A stretch of 64,000 nucleotides of DNA from an uncultured Bdellovibrionales bacterium. GTDB taxonomy: Bacteria; Patescibacteriota; Minisyncoccia; Moranbacterales; UBA2206. This document shows, in pieces, positions 533-62,873 of the stretch. Made by a program: the position numbers and the translations under genes. The stretch spans positions 7,906-71,905 of the forward strand of contig CAYOTC010000002.1 in NCBI GenBank assembly GCA_964406815.1. The letters are read 5' to 3'. Below the pieces are notes generated by a model. That model was not told the origin of the DNA. It made no database searches and was given only the letters and a program-made list of their open reading frames with translations. Position 1 is the first letter of the stretch; each line of letters starts with the position of its first letter.

Positions 533-1725
533 GAAAAACTTTTTTTGAGAGATTTATTTATTTGATAATATTTTTATTACCAACCTATCTTATAAAGATA
601 AGATTTTTTGAATTTTCGACAAATATTTTGGAAATAATCATCTTTATTTTTTTGTTGTTTTATTTTTCAAAAAAAGAAAGAACAAGAGAATTCTTTTATT
701 TTATAAAAAAGTATCGAAGTCTTTTTTTTGGAATTATTATTATTTTACTAGGAACAACAATATCCATAGTGATGAATGAAAAATATTTTGTCGGGATGGG
801 GATATTGAAAGGGTGGTTTTTAATTCCAATTTTATTTAGTTCAGTTTCGATTTCTTTTCTAAAAAGAGAAGGGATTAAAAAGATTTTTTTAAGCTATTAT
901 CTTTCTTCTCTAGTTGTTTCGTTAATTTCTTTAATATATTTTTTGCTAGAAGAAATAACTTTTGATGGTAGATTGGAAGGAATTTTTAATTCACCGAATT
1001 ATTTGGCAATGTATCTTGCGCCGGCTATGATTATCGGATTTATAGGTTTTTATAAAAATAAATCCAATATAGTCGAAGATGGCTGGAAAAGCGTAAACAC
1101 TGTTCATCTGATTACGATAATTATTATAATGATTTCTTTTTATTTAACCTATTCTTATGCGGCTTGGTTTTCTTTGGGATTAGCTATCTTGATATTTTTT
1201 ATTCTAAAAAATCACTTAAGTAAAAAAAACATATTTTTGATTATTTTAATTTTTGGAATCCTGCTTGTTTCTCAAGGCGATTCTTCGAAGCTTAAGAATG
1301 TGTTTATTGGAAATGGACGATCATCTCTTGATTCAAGAATTATGATTTGGCGATCAGCTGGAAAAATGATTGAAAACGACGGATTTTTCGGAATTGGACC
1401 GGGAAATTTTCAAGAAAAATACTTAGAATACCAAAAATATTATCCTCCATATCTGGAATGGGCCGTTCCTCATCCACATAATATTTTTCTCGCCTTTTGG
1501 CTTTATTCGGGAATATTGGGATTAATCGGTTTTTTTTGTATTCTTTATCTATTTTTTAAAAAAATATTTCTTAGAAAAAATAAAACTGCAATAATCTATA
1601 TGGCACTATTGATTATTATTGATGTATTGCTTCATGGATTTTTTGATACGACATATTTTAAAAACGATCTCGCAATTGTTTTTTGGATAGTAATCTTATT
1701 TGGATATTGTCATGAAAATGATTAA
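523..1725 (+). CDS. O-antigen ligase / Wzy-like polytopic membrane protein
   Basis: 400 aa with about 10 TM segments. The 'NSPNYLAMYLAPAM' and 'GIGPGNFQEKY...HPHNIFLAFWLYSGILGLIGF' regions resemble the Wzy_C family core. Confidence 0.55.
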   Translation: MSIRKTFFERFIYLIIFLLPTYLIKIRFFEFSTNILEIIIFIFLLFYFSKKERTREFFYFIKKYRSLFFGIIIILLGTTISIVMNEKYFVGMGILKGWFLIPILFSSVSISFLKREGIKKIFLSYYLSSLVVSLISLIYFLLEEITFDGRLEGIFNSPNYLAMYLAPAMIIGFIGFYKNKSNIVEDGWKSVNTVHLITIIIIMISFYLTYSYAAWFSLGLAILIFFILKNHLSKKNIFLIILIFGILLVSQGDSSKLKNVFIGNGRSSLDSRIMIWRSAGKMIENDGFFGIGPGNFQEKYLEYQKYYPPYLEWAVPHPHNIFLAFWLYSGILGLIGFFCILYLFFKKIFLRKNKTAIIYMALLIIIDVLLHGFFDTTYFKNDLAIVFWIVILFGYCHEND

Positions 1726-10854: not shown

Positions 10855-11541
10855 TTATTTTAATTCTATGTTTGAAATATCTCCTAGTCCGGAATTGTTG
10901 GCAGTAGAAGGATTATAGCTGTTGAACATCAACTCGATGAGCTCTTGAGTTTTAAGCGGGATTATTTTCAGTCCTATTCCGGATAAAGCGGCAACTACTT
11001 GGTCAATGCGCTGGTTAAGCTGGGATTTATATATTTCGAAATTCTCTCTTTTTTCCAATATATTTTTTTTGGGATCAAGAAGGCTTTGCAGATTTTTGAA
11101 AAAACCGCCTTCTTTGTTTTCAATCGGAGAAAATGGAACAATGATATAAAAACTTTTATCCATTATATTGGATACGGAAATCAGTTGTCTTATGAAATTT
11201 CTATATTCGGATATTTGGAGGCGCATCAGTTCACTAGACTGTTGTTTTTCTTTATCAGTCAGAAAATCAAGATATTTATCCATATTGATTTTTCTTGAAC
11301 TGATCAATATTTGAACGGGAAAATCGACGGAATTGAGAAAACTTTGGTAATGACCAATAACTGCTTCCTGTTCCTCGGTTGATTTTAGATCGAAATTTAT
11401 GGAAGAAACTCCAAGCACGGCGCGCAAAGCGCCGTTTTTCAAAACAATCACATCTTCCTTTATTTCAGCCACGTCAATGAATTGCTGAGTGGCGGAAGTG
11501 GTGGTTTTTTTTGTATTTTTTTCTGAGTAAAGTTTTTCCAT
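10855..11541 (-). CDS. VirB4 N-terminal-domain-like protein encoded as a separate ORF 32 nt upstream of the VirB4 ATPase ORF
   Basis: 'FIDVAEIKEDVIVLKNGALRAVLGVSSINFDLKSTEEQEAVIGHYQSFLNSVDFPVQILI' resembles the VirB4/TraC N-terminal region. Same strand as virB4. Combined length 228+614 aa matches full-length VirB4. Confidence 0.45.
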   Translation of the reverse strand: MEKLYSEKNTKKTTTSATQQFIDVAEIKEDVIVLKNGALRAVLGVSSINFDLKSTEEQEAVIGHYQSFLNSVDFPVQILISSRKINMDKYLDFLTDKEKQQSSELMRLQISEYRNFIRQLISVSNIMDKSFYIIVPFSPIENKEGGFFKNLQSLLDPKKNILEKRENFEIYKSQLNQRIDQVVAALSGIGLKIIPLKTQELIELMFNSYNPSTANNSGLGDISNIELK

Positions 11542-11620
11542 AGATGAATTATAACACGGTTTTTATTTTTTATTTTACAAAAATAATAAATTCTAAAATT
11601 TAAAATATGATCTTTTGAGA

Positions 11621-12022
11621 TTATTTTCTTTTATTTATGTCAAGCGACTCAGAAATTTGGGAGAGCTCGTCAAAAGAAGCGGTTTTTCGAAGATTTTTTT
11701 TTGGAGCTGTTTTTAAAATGGTGTTTTTTGCTTGATTTTTTTCCGTGATTTTTTTCCAAATATACATTCTTGGTCTCATAAAAAAGTAAAATATCGAGCC
11801 GACAAGAAAAACAAAAGGCTGGCCATAGGGGCGATAAAAAGCAAAAGCTAGGGCGATAGCCAGAACCGGAATTGCTGCGATATAGAATATTTGAGTTTCA
11901 AGGAAGGTATAAAGAAGAAGCACGATTATTCCCCCTAAAAAAAGCCAACCGAGCTGTTTGGCGGTCAGTGGACCGACAATCTTGTCTTCGACATTTATAA
12001 ATTGTGGAACATTAAACATCAT
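11621..12022 (-). CDS. PrgI/VirB3-like small membrane protein
   Basis: 133 aa with 2 TMs. The N-terminus 'VPQFINVEDKIVGPLTAKQLGWL' matches the PrgI-family pattern (..eDki.GplT.rQ). Immediately upstream of virB4, as in Gram-positive T4SS loci. Confidence 0.5.
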   Translation of the reverse strand: MMFNVPQFINVEDKIVGPLTAKQLGWLFLGGIIVLLLYTFLETQIFYIAAIPVLAIALAFAFYRPYGQPFVFLVGSIFYFFMRPRMYIWKKITEKNQAKNTILKTAPKKNLRKTASFDELSQISESLDINKRK

Positions 12023-12119
12023 AAATTCTTATAACATATATCATATAACATATATCATATAACATATATCATTGTAACACGTAATAAAATATTTTATTTG
12101 TATTTATTAATTTGAAAAA

Positions 12120-13283
12120 TCAATTCTCTTTTAGGTTGACGACATTTTTCTGGGAAAAATTGTCTTTGACAGGATTTTTCAATTGAATATTGCTCAAGTC
12201 AACAGTTGAATTTGAGAATGCTTTTTTAGGTTCGGCTGGCGGGAAATTTTTTTGTGAGTTTATTTTTTCTATGGGAAATTTATGCGGAGAGGAAAAGTTG
12301 ATATTGTTTTGATTTTCCGGAGCGGGGTTTTCATTTTTTGGATTCAAATCTCTTCTCCAATTGCTCAATCTTTCTTCTACATTGACTTCCGGTTTTTTTT
12401 CGGAAGGTCTTAGGTTGATTGAAGACGAGAATGAGGCTGGTTTTGCTGAAGGTTTTTCTTGAGGTCTCAGAAAGATTACCTGTTTTCTGTCGGCATCAAT
12501 TGAAAGCGGAGTATTTTCATCAAATGATTTGGCGATATCGGTCAATTTTTCTCTTTCAGAAGAAGAAAGTTTCTGCGTGTTGATGTTTCGAAAAAGATAA
12601 TCCATTCGCACCATCTGATCGTGATTGTTTATTCCGACGTTGAACATATAATCAGAAATCCAATTCTTGATCGATGGCCGGACCGGTTCAGGGAATGATT
12701 TCAATCGGATGTGTTCAGATGTAATAAGCTGTTCGCCAATTTCCGGAAATTTTTTCATCGCGTCGGAGATGTTGAGGTTTAGGAGATTTTGGGGAGTTTG
12801 ACGAATTTCTTCCTTTTTTATTTCTTCCATCTTTTCTTTTTCTTCATCCTCTTTTTCCCTGATTATCCAAGGCTCTATTTCTAAAACTTTTTGCCAAGCA
12901 GCATCTTCGGAAATAATTGGTGTAGTTTTTAATCGTTCCCATTTGTATAAAAGTTCTGGTGCATTAGTAAAATAATCGGGAAATTTAGCAAAAAGTCTTT
13001 TGTTTATTTCATATGAAATTCCAAAAGCTATATTATCGGCAATATTATTTTGTTTGACTATGTGAGGTAGATTTTCCAATTTTTCTTCGCCTACAAAGAT
13101 TAATCCTACGGGTGTAGATAATTGTTCAATAATTTTTTCTTGTTCACTATAAAGAAAGCAAGATTTTTCAAGTTCAAAACGAAAATCATTTGAACCAAAA
13201 AATTCTCTTTCTGAATCTGGTAATTTTGAAATTTTTTCAAAAAAATCCATAGAATAAAAATAATTAAAGCTATTTGTATGCAC
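12120..13283 (-). CDS. Hypothetical cytoplasmic protein (T4SS locus)
   Basis: 387 aa, no TM, Glu/Lys-rich central region. Confidence 0.4.
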   Translation of the reverse strand: MHTNSFNYFYSMDFFEKISKLPDSEREFFGSNDFRFELEKSCFLYSEQEKIIEQLSTPVGLIFVGEEKLENLPHIVKQNNIADNIAFGISYEINKRLFAKFPDYFTNAPELLYKWERLKTTPIISEDAAWQKVLEIEPWIIREKEDEEKEKMEEIKKEEIRQTPQNLLNLNISDAMKKFPEIGEQLITSEHIRLKSFPEPVRPSIKNWISDYMFNVGINNHDQMVRMDYLFRNINTQKLSSSEREKLTDIAKSFDENTPLSIDADRKQVIFLRPQEKPSAKPASFSSSINLRPSEKKPEVNVEERLSNWRRDLNPKNENPAPENQNNINFSSPHKFPIEKINSQKNFPPAEPKKAFSNSTVDLSNIQLKNPVKDNFSQKNVVNLKEN

Positions 13284-15648
13284 GCAATTGAGGATCTCTG
13301 TCGATAGTTTTTTTCAATGATTGAACATTAGGATCGGTGCCTGGTGCAGAATTATAAATATATCTAACAATGTTTCTTGCTTTAGTATTGTCCATATTAC
13401 TCACCATCTCTTTGAATTTTCCAATACTAATATTTCTAGCAAAGGATTCTTTATGGAAAGTGCTTACAGTTGAAATGTCAAAATCAGAGAGAGTGTCTTT
13501 ATTTCCTTTTTCATAAATATATTTCTCTAGAGAAGGGTCTATACTGGCTGATAGTTTTCCTGTTGTTGCTGTGTAAGCTCTCTGAACAAATTTAGAAGTT
13601 GAATCTCCTGGAACATTGTATGTACTATTAGAAGCAAGTTTATTCAATGAAATTTCTAGATTATTTTTAAAAGAAGCTCCTTTTTTCTTTAATTTTACAA
13701 TATCATCAATATTTGCAGCATCCTCTTTAGCTACAATTTCCATAAATGCAGCATTTTTATAAGTATCACTTTTATAATTGTCAAGTCTGAATTGACTACT
13801 TTTCACAAAATCTTCCATATGCTTAGTATTGAAATTTATATCTCCAGTTGTTGGATCTGTGTCGATTGTTCCATCTGATTTGAAATTTGCAAAAGCCAAT
13901 TCTGGTCTAATTGATCTTACTTTATAAGCAAGTTGTTTAAATTCTTGAGAAGCTTCTCCAAAGGTTCTTCTGAAATCTTCAAAATCAGTATCTTCTATTA
14001 TGCCATGTTTATCAGCTAATTCTTTAATGGCTGCAGCTCGTGTATATTTATCAGAGCTTGTTGCAAGAGTCTTAAGATCAGATGCCATCTTATTGCTCAT
14101 ATCATTATCATCATAAGCCTCTTTAACTTTCTTGGCATTAAGTTTATCTTGAGCGCCTTTAACTCCCATTCTAGCTGCCAATTTAGCCTCTCTTTCCTCA
14201 GCTCTTTCAGAACCAAGCCAACCTGATTTTTTAAACTGCGCAAAGCGCTGTTTCATTCCGCCCGGAATACCGGTTTTTTTAAATCCCCATGAAGCTAAAG
14301 GTCTTATACCGCCGAGATTTTTGGCGAAAGATTTTCCGTGTTTAGTGACGCTGCCTACGATTGCGCTTGCGCCGATTAGACTGCTTTTTTTAGCTACCAT
14401 CATTCCCATCCAGAGAATAATAACCGGAATGGAAAAATAAGCTGCTGAGCCTATGAGTCTTTGCAGAGAGCTAATTTTAGTATTATCTTCTGCTAAAGAT
14501 GAAAACTGATTTTGTATGCCTGCCATTTCTCCTATTATTTGCAATGAAATAAAAACGAAAAAAAGCATTATCGGTCCGAAAAAAGCGGCATCCATCAATT
14601 TTTTCCACCACTCGCCGGCTTTTCCGGAAAGTTCCGATCCGGGAAGCGTCGGACCGACAAAAGCTATGGGGGAAAAAATAATCAGAATTGCCAATGTGAC
14701 AACTCGGACAAGCAAAAGAAGCGCTAAAACAATAAAAGTCATTGCCAGAATAAATGTGAAAACTATGGAGGCGATTATAAACATAACATCTGGATTGGGT
14801 GTTGTTATAATTTTTTCCATTTCGCTAGCATCCGCTATGTTTGCTAATGTTCCGGTGGGTGATAATTGATTGATGAAAAAATACATAATAACATTAGCAA
14901 CATCGATGATGAAGCGGGTTATGGGATAACTGAAATTAACAAGAAGCGCCATTAGGATGAGGTTGGGAACAACCTTTGACCAATGATATTTATCCACTTG
15001 GAAAACTGTGCAGAAAGCGCTATAGAGAAGAACAAAGATAAAAACAATATTTAGAAAATCTCTGACTAGTGACCATGCAAAGTAAATAGCTTCATTATTT
15101 ATTATGGTGCTTAGGACAGTGGGGTTAATTATGGCATCAAAGATTACCCCAGCAATGCTTAATAAAACTACCACGAAGCTAAGTATGTGAAGAAGTGGGC
15201 ACTTCAGAAGATAATTACCCAGATTTGATATGCCAGAAGGAAGATTAGCACAGACGCTGGTATTATTTTCAACTGCCTTAGACGATCCGGCTCTGTAATG
15301 TTTATCGTGATTTTTAATTTCTGAAGTTGGTTTTATTCCTTGACCTCCATTATTCCAATATTCTATTCCGTCAAACTTAATATGAGGATTGGGAACTGCC
15401 ATATTTGAAAATCCATCGTTGATTTTTTCTTTCTGACAAATTTCATAACATTTTTCTTTGTCGGAAGCTTCTAATGGGTATTTATCGTTATAAAAAACAG
15501 ATTCTTTTGCATATCCAGAGCCTGATCGTCCACAAATACATTCTCCCGCCTGCGCTTTTTCTGCTCCAAATAATCCAAAAAAAGCCGTTATTGCCAAAAC
15601 AAAAACAGCAAAAAGAATAATTGTTTTTAAAAATTGATTATTTTTCAC
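13270..15648 (-). CDS. VirB6/TrbL-like polytopic channel protein with Cys-containing N-terminal ectodomain and long C-terminal soluble domain
   Basis: Signal peptide, 'GECICGRSGSGY', at least 7 TMs in the middle, then a ~330-aa hydrophilic tail. The architecture is typical of Gram-positive VirB6 homologs (e.g. TcpH/PrgH-like). Confidence 0.45.
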   Translation of the reverse strand: MKNNQFLKTIILFAVFVLAITAFFGLFGAEKAQAGECICGRSGSGYAKESVFYNDKYPLEASDKEKCYEICQKEKINDGFSNMAVPNPHIKFDGIEYWNNGGQGIKPTSEIKNHDKHYRAGSSKAVENNTSVCANLPSGISNLGNYLLKCPLLHILSFVVVLLSIAGVIFDAIINPTVLSTIINNEAIYFAWSLVRDFLNIVFIFVLLYSAFCTVFQVDKYHWSKVVPNLILMALLVNFSYPITRFIIDVANVIMYFFINQLSPTGTLANIADASEMEKIITTPNPDVMFIIASIVFTFILAMTFIVLALLLLVRVVTLAILIIFSPIAFVGPTLPGSELSGKAGEWWKKLMDAAFFGPIMLFFVFISLQIIGEMAGIQNQFSSLAEDNTKISSLQRLIGSAAYFSIPVIILWMGMMVAKKSSLIGASAIVGSVTKHGKSFAKNLGGIRPLASWGFKKTGIPGGMKQRFAQFKKSGWLGSERAEEREAKLAARMGVKGAQDKLNAKKVKEAYDDNDMSNKMASDLKTLATSSDKYTRAAAIKELADKHGIIEDTDFEDFRRTFGEASQEFKQLAYKVRSIRPELAFANFKSDGTIDTDPTTGDINFNTKHMEDFVKSSQFRLDNYKSDTYKNAAFMEIVAKEDAANIDDIVKLKKKGASFKNNLEISLNKLASNSTYNVPGDSTSKFVQRAYTATTGKLSASIDPSLEKYIYEKGNKDTLSDFDISTVSTFHKESFARNISIGKFKEMVSNMDNTKARNIVRYIYNSAPGTDPNVQSLKKTIDRDPQLRAYK

Positions 15649-21144: not shown

Positions 21145-21226
21145 AATTATTCAATCGATTAGACTCAAGAATATTATAGCGGGAGCAGTAGTTTTTATCC
21201 AGTTAGTTCTAAAAAACATTTTACTT

Positions 21227-21391
21227 GCTTTCTTTGACAGCAAAGAAAGCGAATAGAAAGAAACTGTCGAACAGGCTCGCGCTGGCAGGATTATGACGAT
21301 TACTCACTAAAATTTACATTTCGCTTCGCTACATTTCAAAATTTTTGACGTTCGTAATCTGTAATCCGGAAACACGCTTCGCAAAGTTCGG
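21227..21391. repeat. Composite intergenic repeat, copy 1 (hairpin gctttctttg-acag-caaagaaagc ... acgcttcgcaaagttcgg)
   Basis: Shares the 5' 10-bp-stem hairpin and the 3' 'ACGCTTCGCAAAGTTCGG' end with the copies at 56524 and 58143. Contains a degenerate tgtc...caggattatgaca segment. Confidence 0.55.
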
Positions 21392-21426
21392 AAAAAACTA
21401 CCAATTACAAACTACCAGCTAATAAC

Positions 21427-56487: not shown

Positions 56488-56523
56488 GTATTTATTTTAC
56501 AACAAAATAGCTAAATATATTAG

Positions 56524-56682
56524 CCCCCTTTCTTTGGTAGCAAAGAAAGGGGGCGGAAAAGTTGCTGTCCGCACGGAATTATAGAACATAATTTATTGTC
56601 ATTCTGGCCTCCGAGCCGGAATCTAGAAAATATAGATCCTAAAACAAGTTCAGGATGACAGAATATACTTCGCAAAGTTCGG
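56524..56682. repeat. Composite intergenic repeat, copy 2, with embedded MITE-like element
   Basis: ccccctttctttg-gtagc-aaagaaaggggg ... ctgtccgcacggaattatagaa ... [MITE] ... acttcgcaaagttcgg. Confidence 0.55.
56597..56660. mobile_element. MITE-like palindromic element, intergenic copy C
   Basis: tgtcattctgg...ccggaatct...gatcctaaaacaagttcaggatgaca; shares termini and internal hairpins with the two copies inside uvrD. Confidence 0.6.
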
Positions 56683-57043
56683 TATTAAATACAAAATATA
56701 AAATAAAAAATTAGGCTTCATTAAGCCTTTTTTAAGATTATTGATTGACGAAGAGGGTATTTTTGACTATACTGTATGCAAGTTAAATTTTTAAGGCTTT
56801 CGACTGGAATGCCGACATATCCTAGAGAAAATCTAGGATTTTTATAGGCAAAATCCGGTTAAAGCCACAAGAAAGGCTTATTATATTAGTAAATTAATCT
56901 ATTCTCTGACACAGACCCTTATAGGACGCGCCAATCTGAAAAAACTGATCTTCCGTATATATGAAAAACAAAGAAATATAGTAGGGTTTATCAAGGAGCA
57001 TAGGACTATAAAAGTACTCCACGTTTTTCGCAACTATTCTTCA

Positions 57044-58066: not shown

Positions 58067-58142
58067 ATATTTAGAAAACTTGAATATAAAAAATAGGCAC
58101 GTCTCGCAACGCGAGAGACGGCCTTTTTTGTTTTTCTTTACT

Positions 58143-58352
58143 AACTTTTCTTGTCAGCAAGAAAAGTTACAAAAGAACTGTCCGCACGAATTCGCTCAGT
58201 ATAAATTTTCGCTCATTCGTTCAAAATCCAGGTTGTTCCTTCGGCAACAAGACCGGATTTTTTCACTCATTCGCTCAATTTATAAACCTCGCGAATTAAG
58301 TGCGGAATTATAGAATGCAAATTCTGGTTCTAGAAATACGCTTCGCAAAGTT
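58143..58352. repeat. Composite intergenic repeat, copy 3 (longest; internal ~95-nt insert bounded by ccgcacgaattcgc/gcgaattaagtgcgg)
   Basis: aacttttcttg-tcagc-aagaaaagtt ... ctgtccgcacg ... gtgcggaattatagaatgcaaattctggttctagaaatacgcttcgcaaagtt. Contains a UUCG-capped hairpin atccaggttgttcc-ttcg-gcaacaagaccggat. Confidence 0.55.
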
Positions 58353-58381
58353 AGAGATAATATACAAAAAATAATATGTCT

Positions 58382-59542
58382 CTAATTGCTATCCAATGAG
58401 TCAGGAATAAATCCATTTTCTCTTAGAGTATGTATCATTCCGCGAAGAAGATAATTATTTGCGAAACCAATAGTATAAATTCTACCATTTTCTTTAAGTG
58501 GTATGAGCATTGATTTATCCTTCAGTCTTTTTAATATTCTAGAGCGTTGTTGCGGAGATTCTTCTCCAAGAATTTTTTCAAGATCTACTGATTTTATAGT
58601 CATTTCTTGATTTTTAATAATAGCAGAAAGAATCTGGTATTCGCGTTTTGTTATATGTTCTCGCTCTAGAGAATATGAGAGCATTGGCAATAAAATTACA
58701 TTGATTATATAACGCAAATCAAGAAGGTTATCTATTTTTTCTATTTCAGTTCGTAATCCTTCAAGAACATACAAGCACCATTTTAAAACATTGTCCTCTT
58801 GTTCTGAATCAGCTAAGGAAAGCATTTTATAATATTTATTGCGATCCATGCAAAATATTGCTGTTGGATTTAATATTCTTCCACTCTTTACTTGAAAGCT
58901 TTGTTTTATAAGAAGTGCATATGTAAACATTCTTACAAGTCTGCCATTTCCATTATCAAAGGGATGTATCCATGCCATTTTATGGTGAGATAGGGCAATT
59001 GCTAGCAAGTGATATTGTGTATCAAGTGGTTGATTAACAAATTCCATAAGTTCATCAAATAATTCTGGAACCTTAATCGATTCTGGAGGAATATGATTTG
59101 ATTTTTTTATAGATACGTTTATTGGTCGTAATATTCCGGGATATCGAGAGCCCTCTCCTGTAGGTGGGGGCGTTAGGTTATTAACAAGTATTTTATGTAT
59201 TTCTGAAATAAGAGCTCTGTCAAACTTGGTTTTTTTATTTACATTTCTATCAATAAAATCGATTGCTTTATCTATATTTTCAATCTCTTTAAATTTTTCA
59301 TCCACAACAATTTTCTTTGATCTATTTTCAATAACCTTTTCAATATATTCAGCTAATGTTGTGTTATTGCCCTCTATTCTTGCAGATCCTAGACTTTCTA
59401 GCATTTGAAATATATCTTTTATTTGAAAAAAGACATGAGGAGAAACTGGTCCGCCTAATTTTTTAACTCGAAGTTTTTCTAGCTCAAAAATTACACTAGT
59501 AAGCTTGCTGCCATATTTAGGGTCATAAATTTTTATGGACAT
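58382..59542 (-). CDS. fic: Fic/DOC-family protein (AMPylator-like)
   Basis: Canonical Fic motif 'HPFDNGNGRLVRM' (HPFx[DE]GNGR). Confidence 0.8.
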   Translation of the reverse strand: MSIKIYDPKYGSKLTSVIFELEKLRVKKLGGPVSPHVFFQIKDIFQMLESLGSARIEGNNTTLAEYIEKVIENRSKKIVVDEKFKEIENIDKAIDFIDRNVNKKTKFDRALISEIHKILVNNLTPPPTGEGSRYPGILRPINVSIKKSNHIPPESIKVPELFDELMEFVNQPLDTQYHLLAIALSHHKMAWIHPFDNGNGRLVRMFTYALLIKQSFQVKSGRILNPTAIFCMDRNKYYKMLSLADSEQEDNVLKWCLYVLEGLRTEIEKIDNLLDLRYIINVILLPMLSYSLEREHITKREYQILSAIIKNQEMTIKSVDLEKILGEESPQQRSRILKRLKDKSMLIPLKENGRIYTIGFANNYLLRGMIHTLRENGFIPDSLDSN

Positions 59543-59764: not shown

Positions 59765-62044
59765 CTATATCTTTCTAAGCGGTGCGATGGAAGCGGAAAG
59801 TTTTTTGAGGCCCACTTTTTTGAAAGCGACTGTTATCATATCGCCTTGCGAAGATACGACTGTTCCATCGCCGAAGACTTCGTGGGAAACTTTTTCTCCA
59901 CCCTTATACTTAGTATCTTGTATTTTGTATCTAGTATTTTGTATAAAATCTTTAGTATCTTTATAACTTTCCATTTCTGATTTTAGATTTACTTGGAAAT
60001 TTGAAATTTGACATTTGTCATTTTGCAGAAGGTGTTCCGGAATGTCATCCAAGAAACGTGACGGCGCATTTATTTGCGTGGAGCCGAAGATGGTCCGTTC
60101 CATTGTGAAAAGCAAATATACTTTTTCTTTTGCTCGGGTGATGCCAACATACATGAGTCTTCTCTCTTCTTCCATTTCTTCTTCACTTAACATACTCCTC
60201 GAATGCGGCAGAATTCCTTCTTCGAGTCCTACGATGAAAACAAAACGGAACTCCAATCCTTTGGCGCTATGCATCGTCATCAAATGCACGGCTTCTTTGG
60301 TCTGGTCGATATTGTCGGTGTCAGAAACCAAAGATACTTCTTCCAAAAATAAATTCAATCCTTCTTCGCTTTCCTCGTCATATTTTTTCGCGACCGAAAG
60401 AAGTTCTTGGACGTTTTCATATCTCATCTGTCCTTCCTCTGATCCGTCCAAGAGAGTTTTTTCATATCCGCTTTCGATGAAAACTTTCTGGATAAAATCA
60501 GTGAGAGATAATTTTTTTCTGGCCTCCGACATTCGTCCGATGAATTCGCAGAATTTGGAAATGGAATCTATTTTAGTATCTTGTATTTTGTATTTAGTAT
60601 CTGGTATGTTTGAAATTTTAAGTCCGCAGGAAATAAAATCCAGATTATTATTTTTAGCCAAAGTGATCCATTTGGAAAATGTGGCATCGCCGATTCCGCG
60701 TTTCGGTTCATTGATGATGCGCTCAAGTGAAACTTCATCGGAGAAATTATTGATGAGTCGAAGATAGGCAATCAGATCTTTTATTTCTTTCCTTTGATAG
60801 AATTTGAGTCCGCCGATAATCCGATAGGGCAGAGAATATTTAAGTAGCGCTTCTTCGATCACGCGGGATTGCGCGTTGGTCCGATATAGTATTACGAAAT
60901 CGGAAAGTCTACATTTGTCATTCCGGATTTGGTCCGGAATCTCTTTGGATCCTGAAACAAGTTCAGGATGACCTAGTCTTATTATTTCTTTCATTATATA
61001 TTCCGCTTCGTCTCTTTCATTGTCGGCTTCATAGGAAACCAAGAGATGGCCATCATTTTTTTCCGTCCAGACTTTTTTGTCTTTGCGGTTTACGTTTTTT
61101 GAAATGACGCCATAGGCCGCGTCCAGAATCGGCTGGGTCGAACGATAGTTCTGCTCCAGTTTGATGACGTGCGCCTCCGGATAATCTTTTTCGAAATTCA
61201 AAATGTTTCTGACATCGGCGCCGCGGAAAAGATAGATGCTTTGCCAATCGTCTCCGCAAACCCAGATGTTTTTGTGGGCGTCGCTGAGCATTTTGACGAG
61301 AATATACTGCGCGCGGTTGGTGTCTTGATATTCGTCCACCATAATATAGCGGAAAATATTTTGATATTTCTTGAGCACTTCGGGATAGGTTTCAAAAATT
61401 TTCACGGTGAGCATTATAATATCGTCGAAATCCAACGCGTTATTTTCTTTGAGCTTTTTTTGATAGGCGGTAAAAACTTTGGAAACCACTTCTTCCCAAT
61501 ATCCGCCGACCATCTCGCCAAATCTTTTGGCATCAATCAATTCATTCTTGGCTTTGGAAATCGCTCCCAGGATTCCTTTGGGATTGAACTGGGTGGTGTC
61601 GATTTCCAATTCCCGCATAGTTTTTTTTATGAGGGCCAGCTGGTCAAGAGAATCGAAAATATTGAAACTGCTTTTATAGCCGATCTTTTCAATCTCACTG
61701 CGAAGAATTTTTACACAAATGGCGTGGAAAGTGCCGATATGTGGCAGGTTGTACCTGTCATTCCGGACTTGGTCCGGAATCTCCTGAGATCCTGAAACAA
61801 GTTCAGGATGACAATTTAATAGTTCCGCCACTCGCTCTTTCATTTCACCGGCGGCTTTGTTGGTGAAAGTCACCGCCAGGATGTTTCCCGGACGGACATT
61901 CTTTTCACGGATAAGATACGCCACTCGATGGGTGAGCGCCCGGGTTTTTCCCGAACCGGCGCCGGCAATGACCAAAACCGGCCCTTCGGTCGTAATGACA
62001 GCTTCACGCTGAGGATCATTAAGTTTTTTCAAGATTTCATCCAT
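59765..62044 (-). CDS. pcrA: UvrD/PcrA-family ATP-dependent DNA helicase carrying four in-frame repeat insertions
   Basis: Walker A 'AGAGSGKT', 'VDEYQDTN', 'GDDWQSIYLFRGA', 'NYRSTQPIL', 'MTMHSAKGLEFRFVFIVGLEEG', 'VGITRAKEKVYLL', and the C-terminal 'GDGTVV' domain. Confidence 0.9.
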   Translation of the reverse strand: MDEILKKLNDPQREAVITTEGPVLVIAGAGSGKTRALTHRVAYLIREKNVRPGNILAVTFTNKAAGEMKERVAELLNCHPELVSGSQEIPDQVRNDRYNLPHIGTFHAICVKILRSEIEKIGYKSSFNIFDSLDQLALIKKTMRELEIDTTQFNPKGILGAISKAKNELIDAKRFGEMVGGYWEEVVSKVFTAYQKKLKENNALDFDDIIMLTVKIFETYPEVLKKYQNIFRYIMVDEYQDTNRAQYILVKMLSDAHKNIWVCGDDWQSIYLFRGADVRNILNFEKDYPEAHVIKLEQNYRSTQPILDAAYGVISKNVNRKDKKVWTEKNDGHLLVSYEADNERDEAEYIMKEIIRLGHPELVSGSKEIPDQIRNDKCRLSDFVILYRTNAQSRVIEEALLKYSLPYRIIGGLKFYQRKEIKDLIAYLRLINNFSDEVSLERIINEPKRGIGDATFSKWITLAKNNNLDFISCGLKISNIPDTKYKIQDTKIDSISKFCEFIGRMSEARKKLSLTDFIQKVFIESGYEKTLLDGSEEGQMRYENVQELLSVAKKYDEESEEGLNLFLEEVSLVSDTDNIDQTKEAVHLMTMHSAKGLEFRFVFIVGLEEGILPHSRSMLSEEEMEEERRLMYVGITRAKEKVYLLFTMERTIFGSTQINAPSRFLDDIPEHLLQNDKCQISNFQVNLKSEMESYKDTKDFIQNTRYKIQDTKYKGGEKVSHEVFGDGTVVSSQGDMITVAFKKVGLKKLSASIAPLRKI
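59899..59960. repeat. AT-rich 'tagtatcttgtattttgtat' tandem repeat, copy 1, in-frame in the uvrD 3' region
   Basis: Encodes 'NTRYKIQDTKYK'. Shares a ~26-nt core with the copy at 60572-60612. Confidence 0.5.
60572..60612. repeat. AT-rich 'tagtatcttgtattttgtat' repeat, copy 2, in-frame in uvrD
   Basis: Encodes 'PDTKYKIQDTKID'. Confidence 0.5.
60916..60973. mobile_element. MITE-like 58-bp palindromic element, copy B, in-frame inside uvrD
   Basis: tgtcattccggatttggtccggaatctctttggatcctgaaacaagttcaggatgac; encodes 'HPELVSGSKEIPDQIRNDK' in the helicase. Confidence 0.65.
61756..61813. mobile_element. MITE-like 58-bp palindromic element, copy A, in-frame inside uvrD
   Basis: tgtcattccggacttggtccggaatctcctgagatcctgaaacaagttcaggatgaca; encodes 'HPELVSGSQEIPDQVRNDR'. 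Confidence 0.65.
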
Positions 62045-62687: not shown

Positions 62688-62873
62688 TTAAATTAAAATT
62701 AGTTTAAATTATGAAGCTCGCGCAGGAATGGCGGGCTTTTTTTATCCCAAGTTTGCTAAAAGTCCGATTATATTATATTCTATCTTTAGTATTAAATAAT
62801 TTAATTAGCGAATGCTGGTTGTTGAAAGGGGGCTTTAACGCTTAAACAACAACGAACGTTTGGCTGAAAAACT

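Follow-up and report, generated by a model that had tools for sequence, protein, structure and literature searches.

Bacteria of the Moranbacteria type, which belong to the CPR, carry a hitherto undescribed family of two-hairpin intergenic repeats of about 175 bases, and three look-alike sequences in the 64,000-nt stretch of DNA analysed here (the window) are members of this family as judged from the sequences. Both hairpins are kept by compensatory change across the subfamilies. Moreover, copies are gained and lost, are swapped for variants of other subfamilies at one locus, have their second hairpin deleted at the base of the stem and leave solo arms. The family is read here, tentatively and with a confidence somewhat short of even, as a DNA repeat of the REPIN/BIME type that is non-autonomous and depends on its structure, resides in intergenic spacers and is moved by a putative mobiliser. 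The genomes of CPR bacteria (Patescibacteria) are tiny and are usually held to be poor in repeats and regulatory RNA; the structure of this family is well supported, and no paper mentioning the repeat sequence was found in the literature. In addition, the copies of the family indicate where genes have been gained, lost or rearranged, metagenome assemblies probably break at them, and the covariance model lets annotators flag the elements and supplies population genomics with a marker of strain-level variation.

The repeat unit and its copies in the window

The architecture of the unit was defined from relatives on 20 other contigs and consists of a first hairpin (HP1), an invariant A-rich tail AGAAAGAAAC, the linker CTGT and a second hairpin (HP2), which stands 3' of CTGT in every relative. 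HP1 of the family is CTTTCTTTG-NCAG-CAAAGAAAG; its lower stem varies, T-rich sequence precedes it, and (T)TAT/TTAC is often found 5' of it, the same sequence being able to pair with the tail as well. HP2 is an imperfect hairpin of about 125 nt with the closing helix CCGCAC/GTGCGG, and its interior contains a tandem mismatch that does not vary, in which TC faces TC (on the other strand, GA faces GA) and which is bordered by the conserved strands TCGCTAAAA and TTAACGCTC and has covarying pairs alongside. The 3' end of the unit is constant, GCGGA(A/G)AA(TCG), and the conserved flanking bases are a T at -7, present in 91% of copies, and the CTGT linker. Direct reading, as distinct from a tool result, gave no ORF conserved among the copies, and a small ORF or a type I toxin was rejected in the same way because the frames are not kept from copy to copy.

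The A-rich tail mirrors the purine strand of HP1, and both change together: the canonical pair is CAAAGAAAG / AAAGAAAC, that of copy 3 (58158-58178) is CAAGAAAAG / AAAAGAAC, and poly-A is found in both places in L017 (tail at about 805-830, minus strand, by eye) and in L003 and L013. An intramolecular triplex of the tail on HP1 was rejected because the covarying lower stem sets the tail 6-7 bp from its partner, and an extended stem was likewise not convincing. A pseudoknot in which the HP1 loop (NCAG) would pair with the CTG linker was also discarded, since the loop varies (CCAT, GTAG) with no compensation.

The three copies had been described in the earlier note, and their positions are borne out by exact matches and by a covariance model free of the window; all three are on the plus strand (Table 1). 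The 12-mer CTTCGCAAAGTT has exactly three occurrences in the window, with 0.6 expected, while CTGTCCGCACG and GGAATTATAGAA have exact matches only in copies 2 and 3. Model R2, built from 20 sequences that all lie outside the window, gave 108.6 bits for copy 1 (E 2e-23), 94.7 bits for copy 3 (E 4e-20) and 46.5 bits for copy 2 (E 4.5e-9); the corresponding values with model R1 were 142.3, 131.6 and 42 bits, the last being a partial match. A convincing fourth copy was found in the window neither with R2 nor in a covariance-model search with the filters off. The hairpins fold as had been noted, with a perfect HP1 pattern in copies 1 and 2 and a compensated variant in copy 3, and the neighbours agree too: copy 1 lies by a G5/DUF348 protein and ComM, copy 2 by an XerD-like recombinase and a LysM-CHAP protein, and copy 3 by the same LysM-CHAP protein and Fic.

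Table 1. Positions of the repeat copies, their parts and adjoining features in the window
Feature	Position	Strand	Basis or remark
Copy 1, full-length though eroding, nearest to subfamily A (64-67% identity)	21222..21395	+	Covariance model, identity matrix
Copy 1, HP1	21225-21252	+	
Copy 1, tail AGAAAGAAAC and CTGT	21255-21266	+	
Copy 1, HP2, closed by TCGAAC/GTTCGG	21267-21391	+	Helix covaries with family CCGCAC/GTGCGG
Copy 2, derived from a copy-3-like composite by internal deletion	56522..56682	+	Partial covariance-model match, alignment to copy 3
Copy 2, HP1	56523-56554	+	
Copy 2, fused core, CTGTCCGCAC joined to GGAATTATAGAA, deletion point of HP2	56565-56586	+	116 nt of HP2 gone
REP/MITE-like double hairpin nested in copy 2 (TGTCATTCTGG..CCGGAATC and GATCCTAAAACAAGTTCAGGATGACA), separate repeat family	56597..56661	+	Aligns with two uvrD copies
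Copy 2, solo 3'-arm fragment ACTTCGCAAAGTTCGG	56667-56682	+	
Intrinsic terminator of the LysM-CHAP gene, bidirectional-looking, just upstream of copy 3 and outside the element	58096..58130	+	Direct reading
Copy 3, intact canonical unit, subfamily D, closest relatives L011 and L045	58139..58309	+	Covariance model, folding, alignment
Copy 3, HP1	58142-58169	+	Stem TAACTTTTCTTG / CAAGAAAAGTTA, loop TCAG
Copy 3, tail CAAAAGAAC	58170-58178	+	
Copy 3, HP2, closed by CCGCAC/GTGCGG	58182-58305	+	TTCG-capped tip
Region 3' of copy 3, REP-like hairpin remnant (ATTCTGG..CTAGAAAT) and solo 3'-arm fragment	58310..58356	+	Alignment with copies 1 and 2
Solo 3'-arm fragment ACGCTTCGCAAAGTTAG downstream of copy 3, copy-1 type	58338-58354	+	

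Copy 3 folds with a z of -5.2 as RNA and of -4.9 to -5.3 as DNA. Its segment of about 95 nt that had been taken for an insertion turned out to be canonical HP2, which every full-length relative carries, so the idea of nested insertions stands for copy 2 and falls for copy 3, where the supposed insertion is the core of the element. Copy 1 had been called degenerate, and its HP2 indeed folds no better than shuffled sequences (z -1.2 as RNA, about 0 as DNA). From its closing helix it follows that the "conserved 3' end" CTTCGCAAAGTTCGG of copy 1 is the 3' strand of this helix (compare CTTCGCAAGTGCGGA in L016); the motif seen at the 3' ends is present in the three copies, but copies 2 and 3 have it downstream of the unit, as an additional solo remnant of a 3' arm.

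Copy 2 is a duplicate of copy 3 that has suffered damage and bears a REP-like insert; copy 1 belongs to a different subfamily and is old. The deletion in copy 2 took the interior of HP2 between the strands of the closing helix (equivalent to 58188-58303), and over 109 aligned positions copy 2 is 88% identical to copy 3 minus HP2. This similarity extends about 20 nt past the element (ATACAAAAWATA), which indicates that the whole composite was duplicated. Copies 2 and 3 are direct repeats flanking the LysM-CHAP gene (56510-56700 and 58125-58375), and the LysM-CHAP terminator just upstream of copy 3 includes a terminator-like site on the minus strand, at 58113-58098.

That copy 2 embeds a MITE-like element, as had been proposed, was corroborated by alignment with the uvrD copies, and this double hairpin resembles palindromes flanking a RAYT-like gene in L017. 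It is also found twice in frame inside an intact UvrD/PcrA gene (uvrD, 59765-62044, minus strand), at 60915-60972 and 61756-61813. These insertions encode the extra peptides HPELVSGSQEIPDQVRND and HPELVSGSKEIPDQIRND, both of which are gaps in the orthologue of L056, and they resemble the in-frame RPE insertions of Rickettsia.

Compensatory change and folding

Copies were sought beyond the window as well, and 22 full-length ones were aligned for the analysis of covariation, an earlier RNAalifold set having comprised eight. RNAalifold gave 46 pairs for the eight copies, 26 of them with compensatory changes. In the 22-copy alignment 94.2% of the pair cells are paired, compared with 37-54% in slid controls, and both sides have changed at 32 of the 46 pairs, which none of 500 shuffles matched. 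Since further copies exist and the covariation is strong, the family is real and structured. The mismatches in the 992 pair cells of this alignment include 18 G-U and 16 A-C, that is, no excess of G-U over A-C at paired positions. The reverse strand is the more stable one as RNA in 20 of the 22 copies, by 6.7 kcal/mol on average, and with DNA parameters both strands fold about equally.

The earlier note had left the choice between a structured non-coding RNA family and a non-autonomous mobile element. What holds of this is a real, structured family, for which mobile or selfish DNA fits somewhat better because of the presence and absence of copies, their replacement, deletion and solo arms, and the lack of a G-U excess.

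When the window was searched with Rfam 15, tRNAs alone reached the gathering threshold, and copy 3 had no meaningful match at E up to 10. A hammerhead core, suggested by a resemblance to CUGANGA/GAAAC, was rejected because it is not conserved across the family. Apart from the repeat, a structured-looking leader (TAGC..CTGGTT..GGC(C/T)GAAAA) is found upstream of rpsO (S15) at 62800-62873 of the window, 7935-7989 of L034 and 5075-5142 of L056; it is conserved in all relatives and falls below every Rfam gathering threshold.

Hosts, distribution and turnover

Relatives were recovered by a scan of genome contigs with the pattern HP1 plus CTGTC, which gave 11, and by a scan of metagenomes with the pattern HP1 plus tail, which gave 14. 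Copies in the genome collection came from MAGs labelled Bdellovibrionales, Patescibacteria and Moranbacteria. More distant relatives, in which the HP1-tail-CTG module is followed by different second hairpins, were found in MAGs labelled Amoebophilaceae, Bacteroidia and Selenomonadales, these taxa being those of the record labels only. Viral contigs gave no match to the family, and carriage by phages was rejected. The core family is assigned to the Moranbacteria type on three grounds: the LysM-CHAP protein of the window, for which look-up gave no exact record, has named relatives in Moranbacteria, Parcubacteria and Patescibacteria; the AspRS of L002 has its closest named relatives among Moranbacteria/Patescibacteria proteins (67-70% identity); and L034 shares 74-78% DNA identity with genes of the window. 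The MAGs of L001, L011 and L014 (CAZXKY) and of L002 and L012 (CAYTRS) are titled "uncultured Bdellovibrionales", a label which, as far as the sequences tell, is probably wrong.

Subfamilies are common to several genomes, and several of them coexist inside one genome. Identity among the copies of one genome is just 50-87%, which gives no hint of a recent burst. The distribution is patchy, with three copies in the window versus none in about 70 kb of distinct Moranbacteria-type sequence at other loci (from about 129 kb in all, much of which is the same loci repeated).

Presence/absence polymorphism was found at several orthologous sites. The spacer between S16 and L10 holds a copy in L037 and none in L014, with flanks that are 93-94% identical, although the two spacers are too diverged to give a base-precise empty site. 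Three syntenic XerD-LysM/CHAP-UvrD loci have neither the element nor Fic, and the window, unlike L034, has no element upstream of rpsO. The Fic gene of the window (58382-59542) adjoins copy 3, and its absence from the LysM/CHAP-UvrD junction of the three syntenic relatives suggests that Fic and copy 3 occupy an insertion site. In the relative L058 the UvrD orthologue (11282-14668) has 1128 aa and contains an intein-splicing domain (PF14890).

Replacement is seen at an orthologous locus of L002 and L075, where the two copies are 83% identical to each other, while the L075 copy shares 90% identity with L012, a paralogue elsewhere in the genome of L002. Furthermore, the 3' end of the unit is the exact starting point of an indel of about 520 nt between these two strains. 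The strain-specific segment which abuts this end measures 616 nt in L002 (5629-6244) and 93 nt in L075 (4522-4614), and that of L002 comprises a promoter-like sequence of its own and a hydrophobic ORF of 125 aa that matched nothing in Pfam. L041 and L042 share 99.8% identity as far as the unit's 3' end, past which they are unrelated. A full unit with a solo 3' arm downstream occurs at copy 3 and in L042, L032 and L017.

Nature of the element and its likeness to known systems

The reading as a structure-dependent DNA repeat is based on the symmetric mismatches, the erosion and deletion of copies, the turnover between relatives, the patchiness and the lack of fixed transcription signals. A folded single strand, most likely of DNA, would be the substrate of a putative trans-acting enzyme. 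Only lineages still able to fold would propagate, and inserted copies would then decay, as may be the case for the eroding copy 1 and the deleted copy 2. The preference for the sense strand would come from selection, as HP2 read in reverse is always followed by CAGUUUCUUUCUUU and is terminator-like, and could be polar on downstream genes. Against a mobile DNA repeat count the tail and the internal-loop motifs (TC/TC, TTAACGCTC, TCGCTAAAA), whose conservation exceeds what a purely selfish palindrome would require, and also the sense bias, the promoter-like hexamers, the absence of any sign of a burst and the results of the search for a mobiliser and for insertion marks. If the repeat does move, the combination of two hairpins with neither inverted ends nor target duplications points to a route of mobilisation that has yet to be characterised.

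No mobilising enzyme was found among the neighbour genes and the Y1/RAYT loci. RAYT-like genes are common in Moranbacteria, and one copy of the repeat, in L017, is 650 nt from a Y1_Tnp gene; the window has no such gene. The Y1_Tnp gene of L017 (938-2197; RAYT-like, 219 aa) lies between inverted copies of a 23-nt palindrome, TTCCGAGAGCCGAGCTCTCGGAA, of which a further copy is inside the ORF and another 500 nt off, the classical RAYT-REP layout; this palindrome resembles the first hairpin of the MITE-like unit of the window. A RAYT/Y1 transposase was rejected as the mobiliser, since the gene of L017 is flanked by this other palindrome and homologous loci are without the element. In 16 stretches of two other RAYT homologues (74.5 kb; two distinct loci, each from 8 samples) the covariance model had no match. 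Boundary offsets scanned for target-site duplications with k of 3-6 gave at best 5 of 22 for a 3-mer, which is chance in AT-rich flanks, and the unit ends carry no terminal inverted repeats.

A structured RNA made from the plus (sense) strand is the strongest alternative, less likely but serious; it would be a 3'-UTR element, co-transcribed with the gene upstream, that protects or processes the 3' ends of mRNAs, or an sRNA with its own promoter, and the loop motifs would bind a protein. It draws on the strong covariation and the invariant unpaired motifs, but G-U pairs are about as frequent as A-C, unlike in curated RNA families, the opposite strand folds better as RNA in nearly all copies, and no Rfam family covers the element. 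The orientation favours an RNA, in that 17 of the 22 copies with a called upstream gene are on the strand of that gene, co-directional spacers hold seven sense copies to one antisense and six loci begin 4-10 nt past a stop codon; five copies, however, are divergent from the neighbouring gene (six copies are in convergent and three in divergent spacers). About 6 of 24 copies have promoter-like sites. The hexamers end 14-20 nt upstream of the HP1 upper stem (CTTTCTTTG) in L001, L011, L049, L050 and L053 (16-20 nt in the first three), and a 50-nt upstream module with TTAAAG-N17-TATAAT/TAAATA is common to the non-orthologous loci L014 (7270-7319) and L049 (reverse strand, about 108-160), which may represent an element of a "long form" that has a promoter of its own. 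These sites, too, support an RNA, yet no promoter or terminator was found at a fixed position relative to the unit. Several copies are directly behind a canonical terminator and ahead of the promoter of the next gene, and at least five of them have no room for a promoter. In the sense direction no U-tract comes after HP1 or HP2, the mean U content being 0.3 of 12 bases past HP1, as against 8.5 of 14 bases past HP2 on the antisense strand. The coexistence of distinct subfamilies in a genome and their recurrence across genomes are in favour of an RNA, whereas the fact that copies can be dispensed with, as seen in their absence from relatives, the erosion of copy 1 and the deletion in copy 2, is not. 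If the family is an RNA, it would be among the first clade-specific structured RNAs of Moranbacteria. As regards a replication-strand bias, the window has no origin marker, the candidate ORF being an O-antigen-ligase-like protein.

It is rather unlikely that the HP1-tail-CTG module together with HP2 is the substrate of a novel nucleic-acid-guided or structure-specific system which inserts or exchanges DNA exactly at the 3' end of the element, or else a new class of protein-binding RNA in the CPR. Either of these, if true, would make the family a new class of functional element and not decaying junk.

A recombination site or cassette boundary, in which the 3' arm of HP2 would be the crossover point for small gene cassettes and hybrid or solo arms would be left behind, is improbable. 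The similarity of the strain pairs L002/L075 and L041/L042 stops exactly at the 3' end of the unit, in favour of this reading, but the break in the latter pair could be an artefact of metagenome assembly at a repeat. Fic beside copy 3, the solo 3' arms and the different subfamilies at orthologous loci also speak for cassette exchange, to which it must be objected that most flanking genes are housekeeping genes and that no recombinase is consistently nearby, the XerD-like gene being a syntenic housekeeping neighbour in genomes without the element. Even more improbable is a domesticated one-way terminator or insulator, in which HP2 and the U-rich tract, entered from the 3' side, would stop convergent or antisense transcription before the upstream gene: the invariance of CAGUUUCUUUCUUU past HP2, the six copies between convergent genes and the lack of another terminator for incoming ComM (copy 1) and Fic (copy 3) agree with it, but the U-tract departs from the canonical form in its 3-nt spacer and its interspersed C residues, seven co-directional spacers have no incoming gene, the same genomes have ordinary terminators, and HP1, the invariant tail and the conserved loops are left unexplained.

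Among known systems, those nearest to a mobile DNA repeat of this kind are the REPINs and BIMEs of E. coli and Pseudomonas, which are REP doublets mobilised by RAYT Y1-HUH transposases. Like them, the present repeat is non-coding, extragenic and multi-copy, has a long imperfect hairpin of two inverted arms with conserved mismatches and compensatory change, occurs as mosaic or composite copies and prefers the 3' ends of genes and convergent spacers. Unlike them, it has a 175-nt unit with an invariant polypurine tail and an extra, separate HP1 which has no counterpart in REPINs. The foot GT(A/G)G of REP is missing, the unit having T at -7 and the CTGT linker and no GTAG; the pairing of HP2 is kept by compensation, yet its arms carry direct motifs on the same strand (the TC/TC mismatch, CGCTC). 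Moreover, its copy number appears low and patchy, inverted copies of another palindrome, not of the repeat, flank the RAYT-like gene of L017, and no copy is near the other RAYT loci examined.

The Correia/NEMIS elements of Neisseria, the enterobacterial ERIC/IRU and the RPE of Rickettsia are palindromic MITE-like elements which are co-transcribed with neighbouring genes. The repeat shares with them a length of 100-200 nt, hairpin formation, intergenic location, insertion and deletion variants, presence/absence polymorphism among strains and the capacity to affect transcript ends. The known elements carry terminal inverted repeats, and Correia elements also a TA duplication, neither of which was found in this repeat; and these known families are restricted to a species or genus and nearly identical inside a genome, whereas the subfamilies here are 50-90% identical and common to several genomes.

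Imperfect hairpins that carry a function, have conserved unpaired bases and are read from one strand are also known, namely ssoA origins, the Frpo-type ssDNA promoters of the F plasmid and the end hairpins of IS200/IS605. The tandem G.A mismatches and the mini-hairpin motifs of the GCGAAGC type on the reverse strand are similar to these, and both are stable in DNA. The repeat differs in being chromosomal, dispersed and located beside housekeeping genes, with no Rep, relaxase or TnpA partner. Its two hairpins are dissimilar while those at the ends of IS200/IS605 are similar, none was found in viral contigs, and, with regard to IS200/IS605-derived PATEs, the Y1 genes of the clade are unlinked to the element. 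With 3'-UTR-derived or paralogous sRNA families it has in common the sense strand past stop codons, a conserved structure and several paralogous subfamilies per genome, but there is no 3' terminator and no G-U bias, and the copies erode and are dispensable.

The R/L boxes of integron attC sites (RYYYAAC...GTTRRRY) are absent from the consensus. In TIGR-Tas systems (PMC12045711) box C/D-like units are arranged in tandem, their spacers vary and a Nop-domain Tas gene adjoins them; a TIGR-Tas array was rejected because the copies are single and dispersed, with loops conserved rather than variable and no Tas-like neighbour. The element stands outside REP-RAYT, classical MITEs, attC, TIGR arrays and all Rfam families and is best filed as a structured intergenic repeat.
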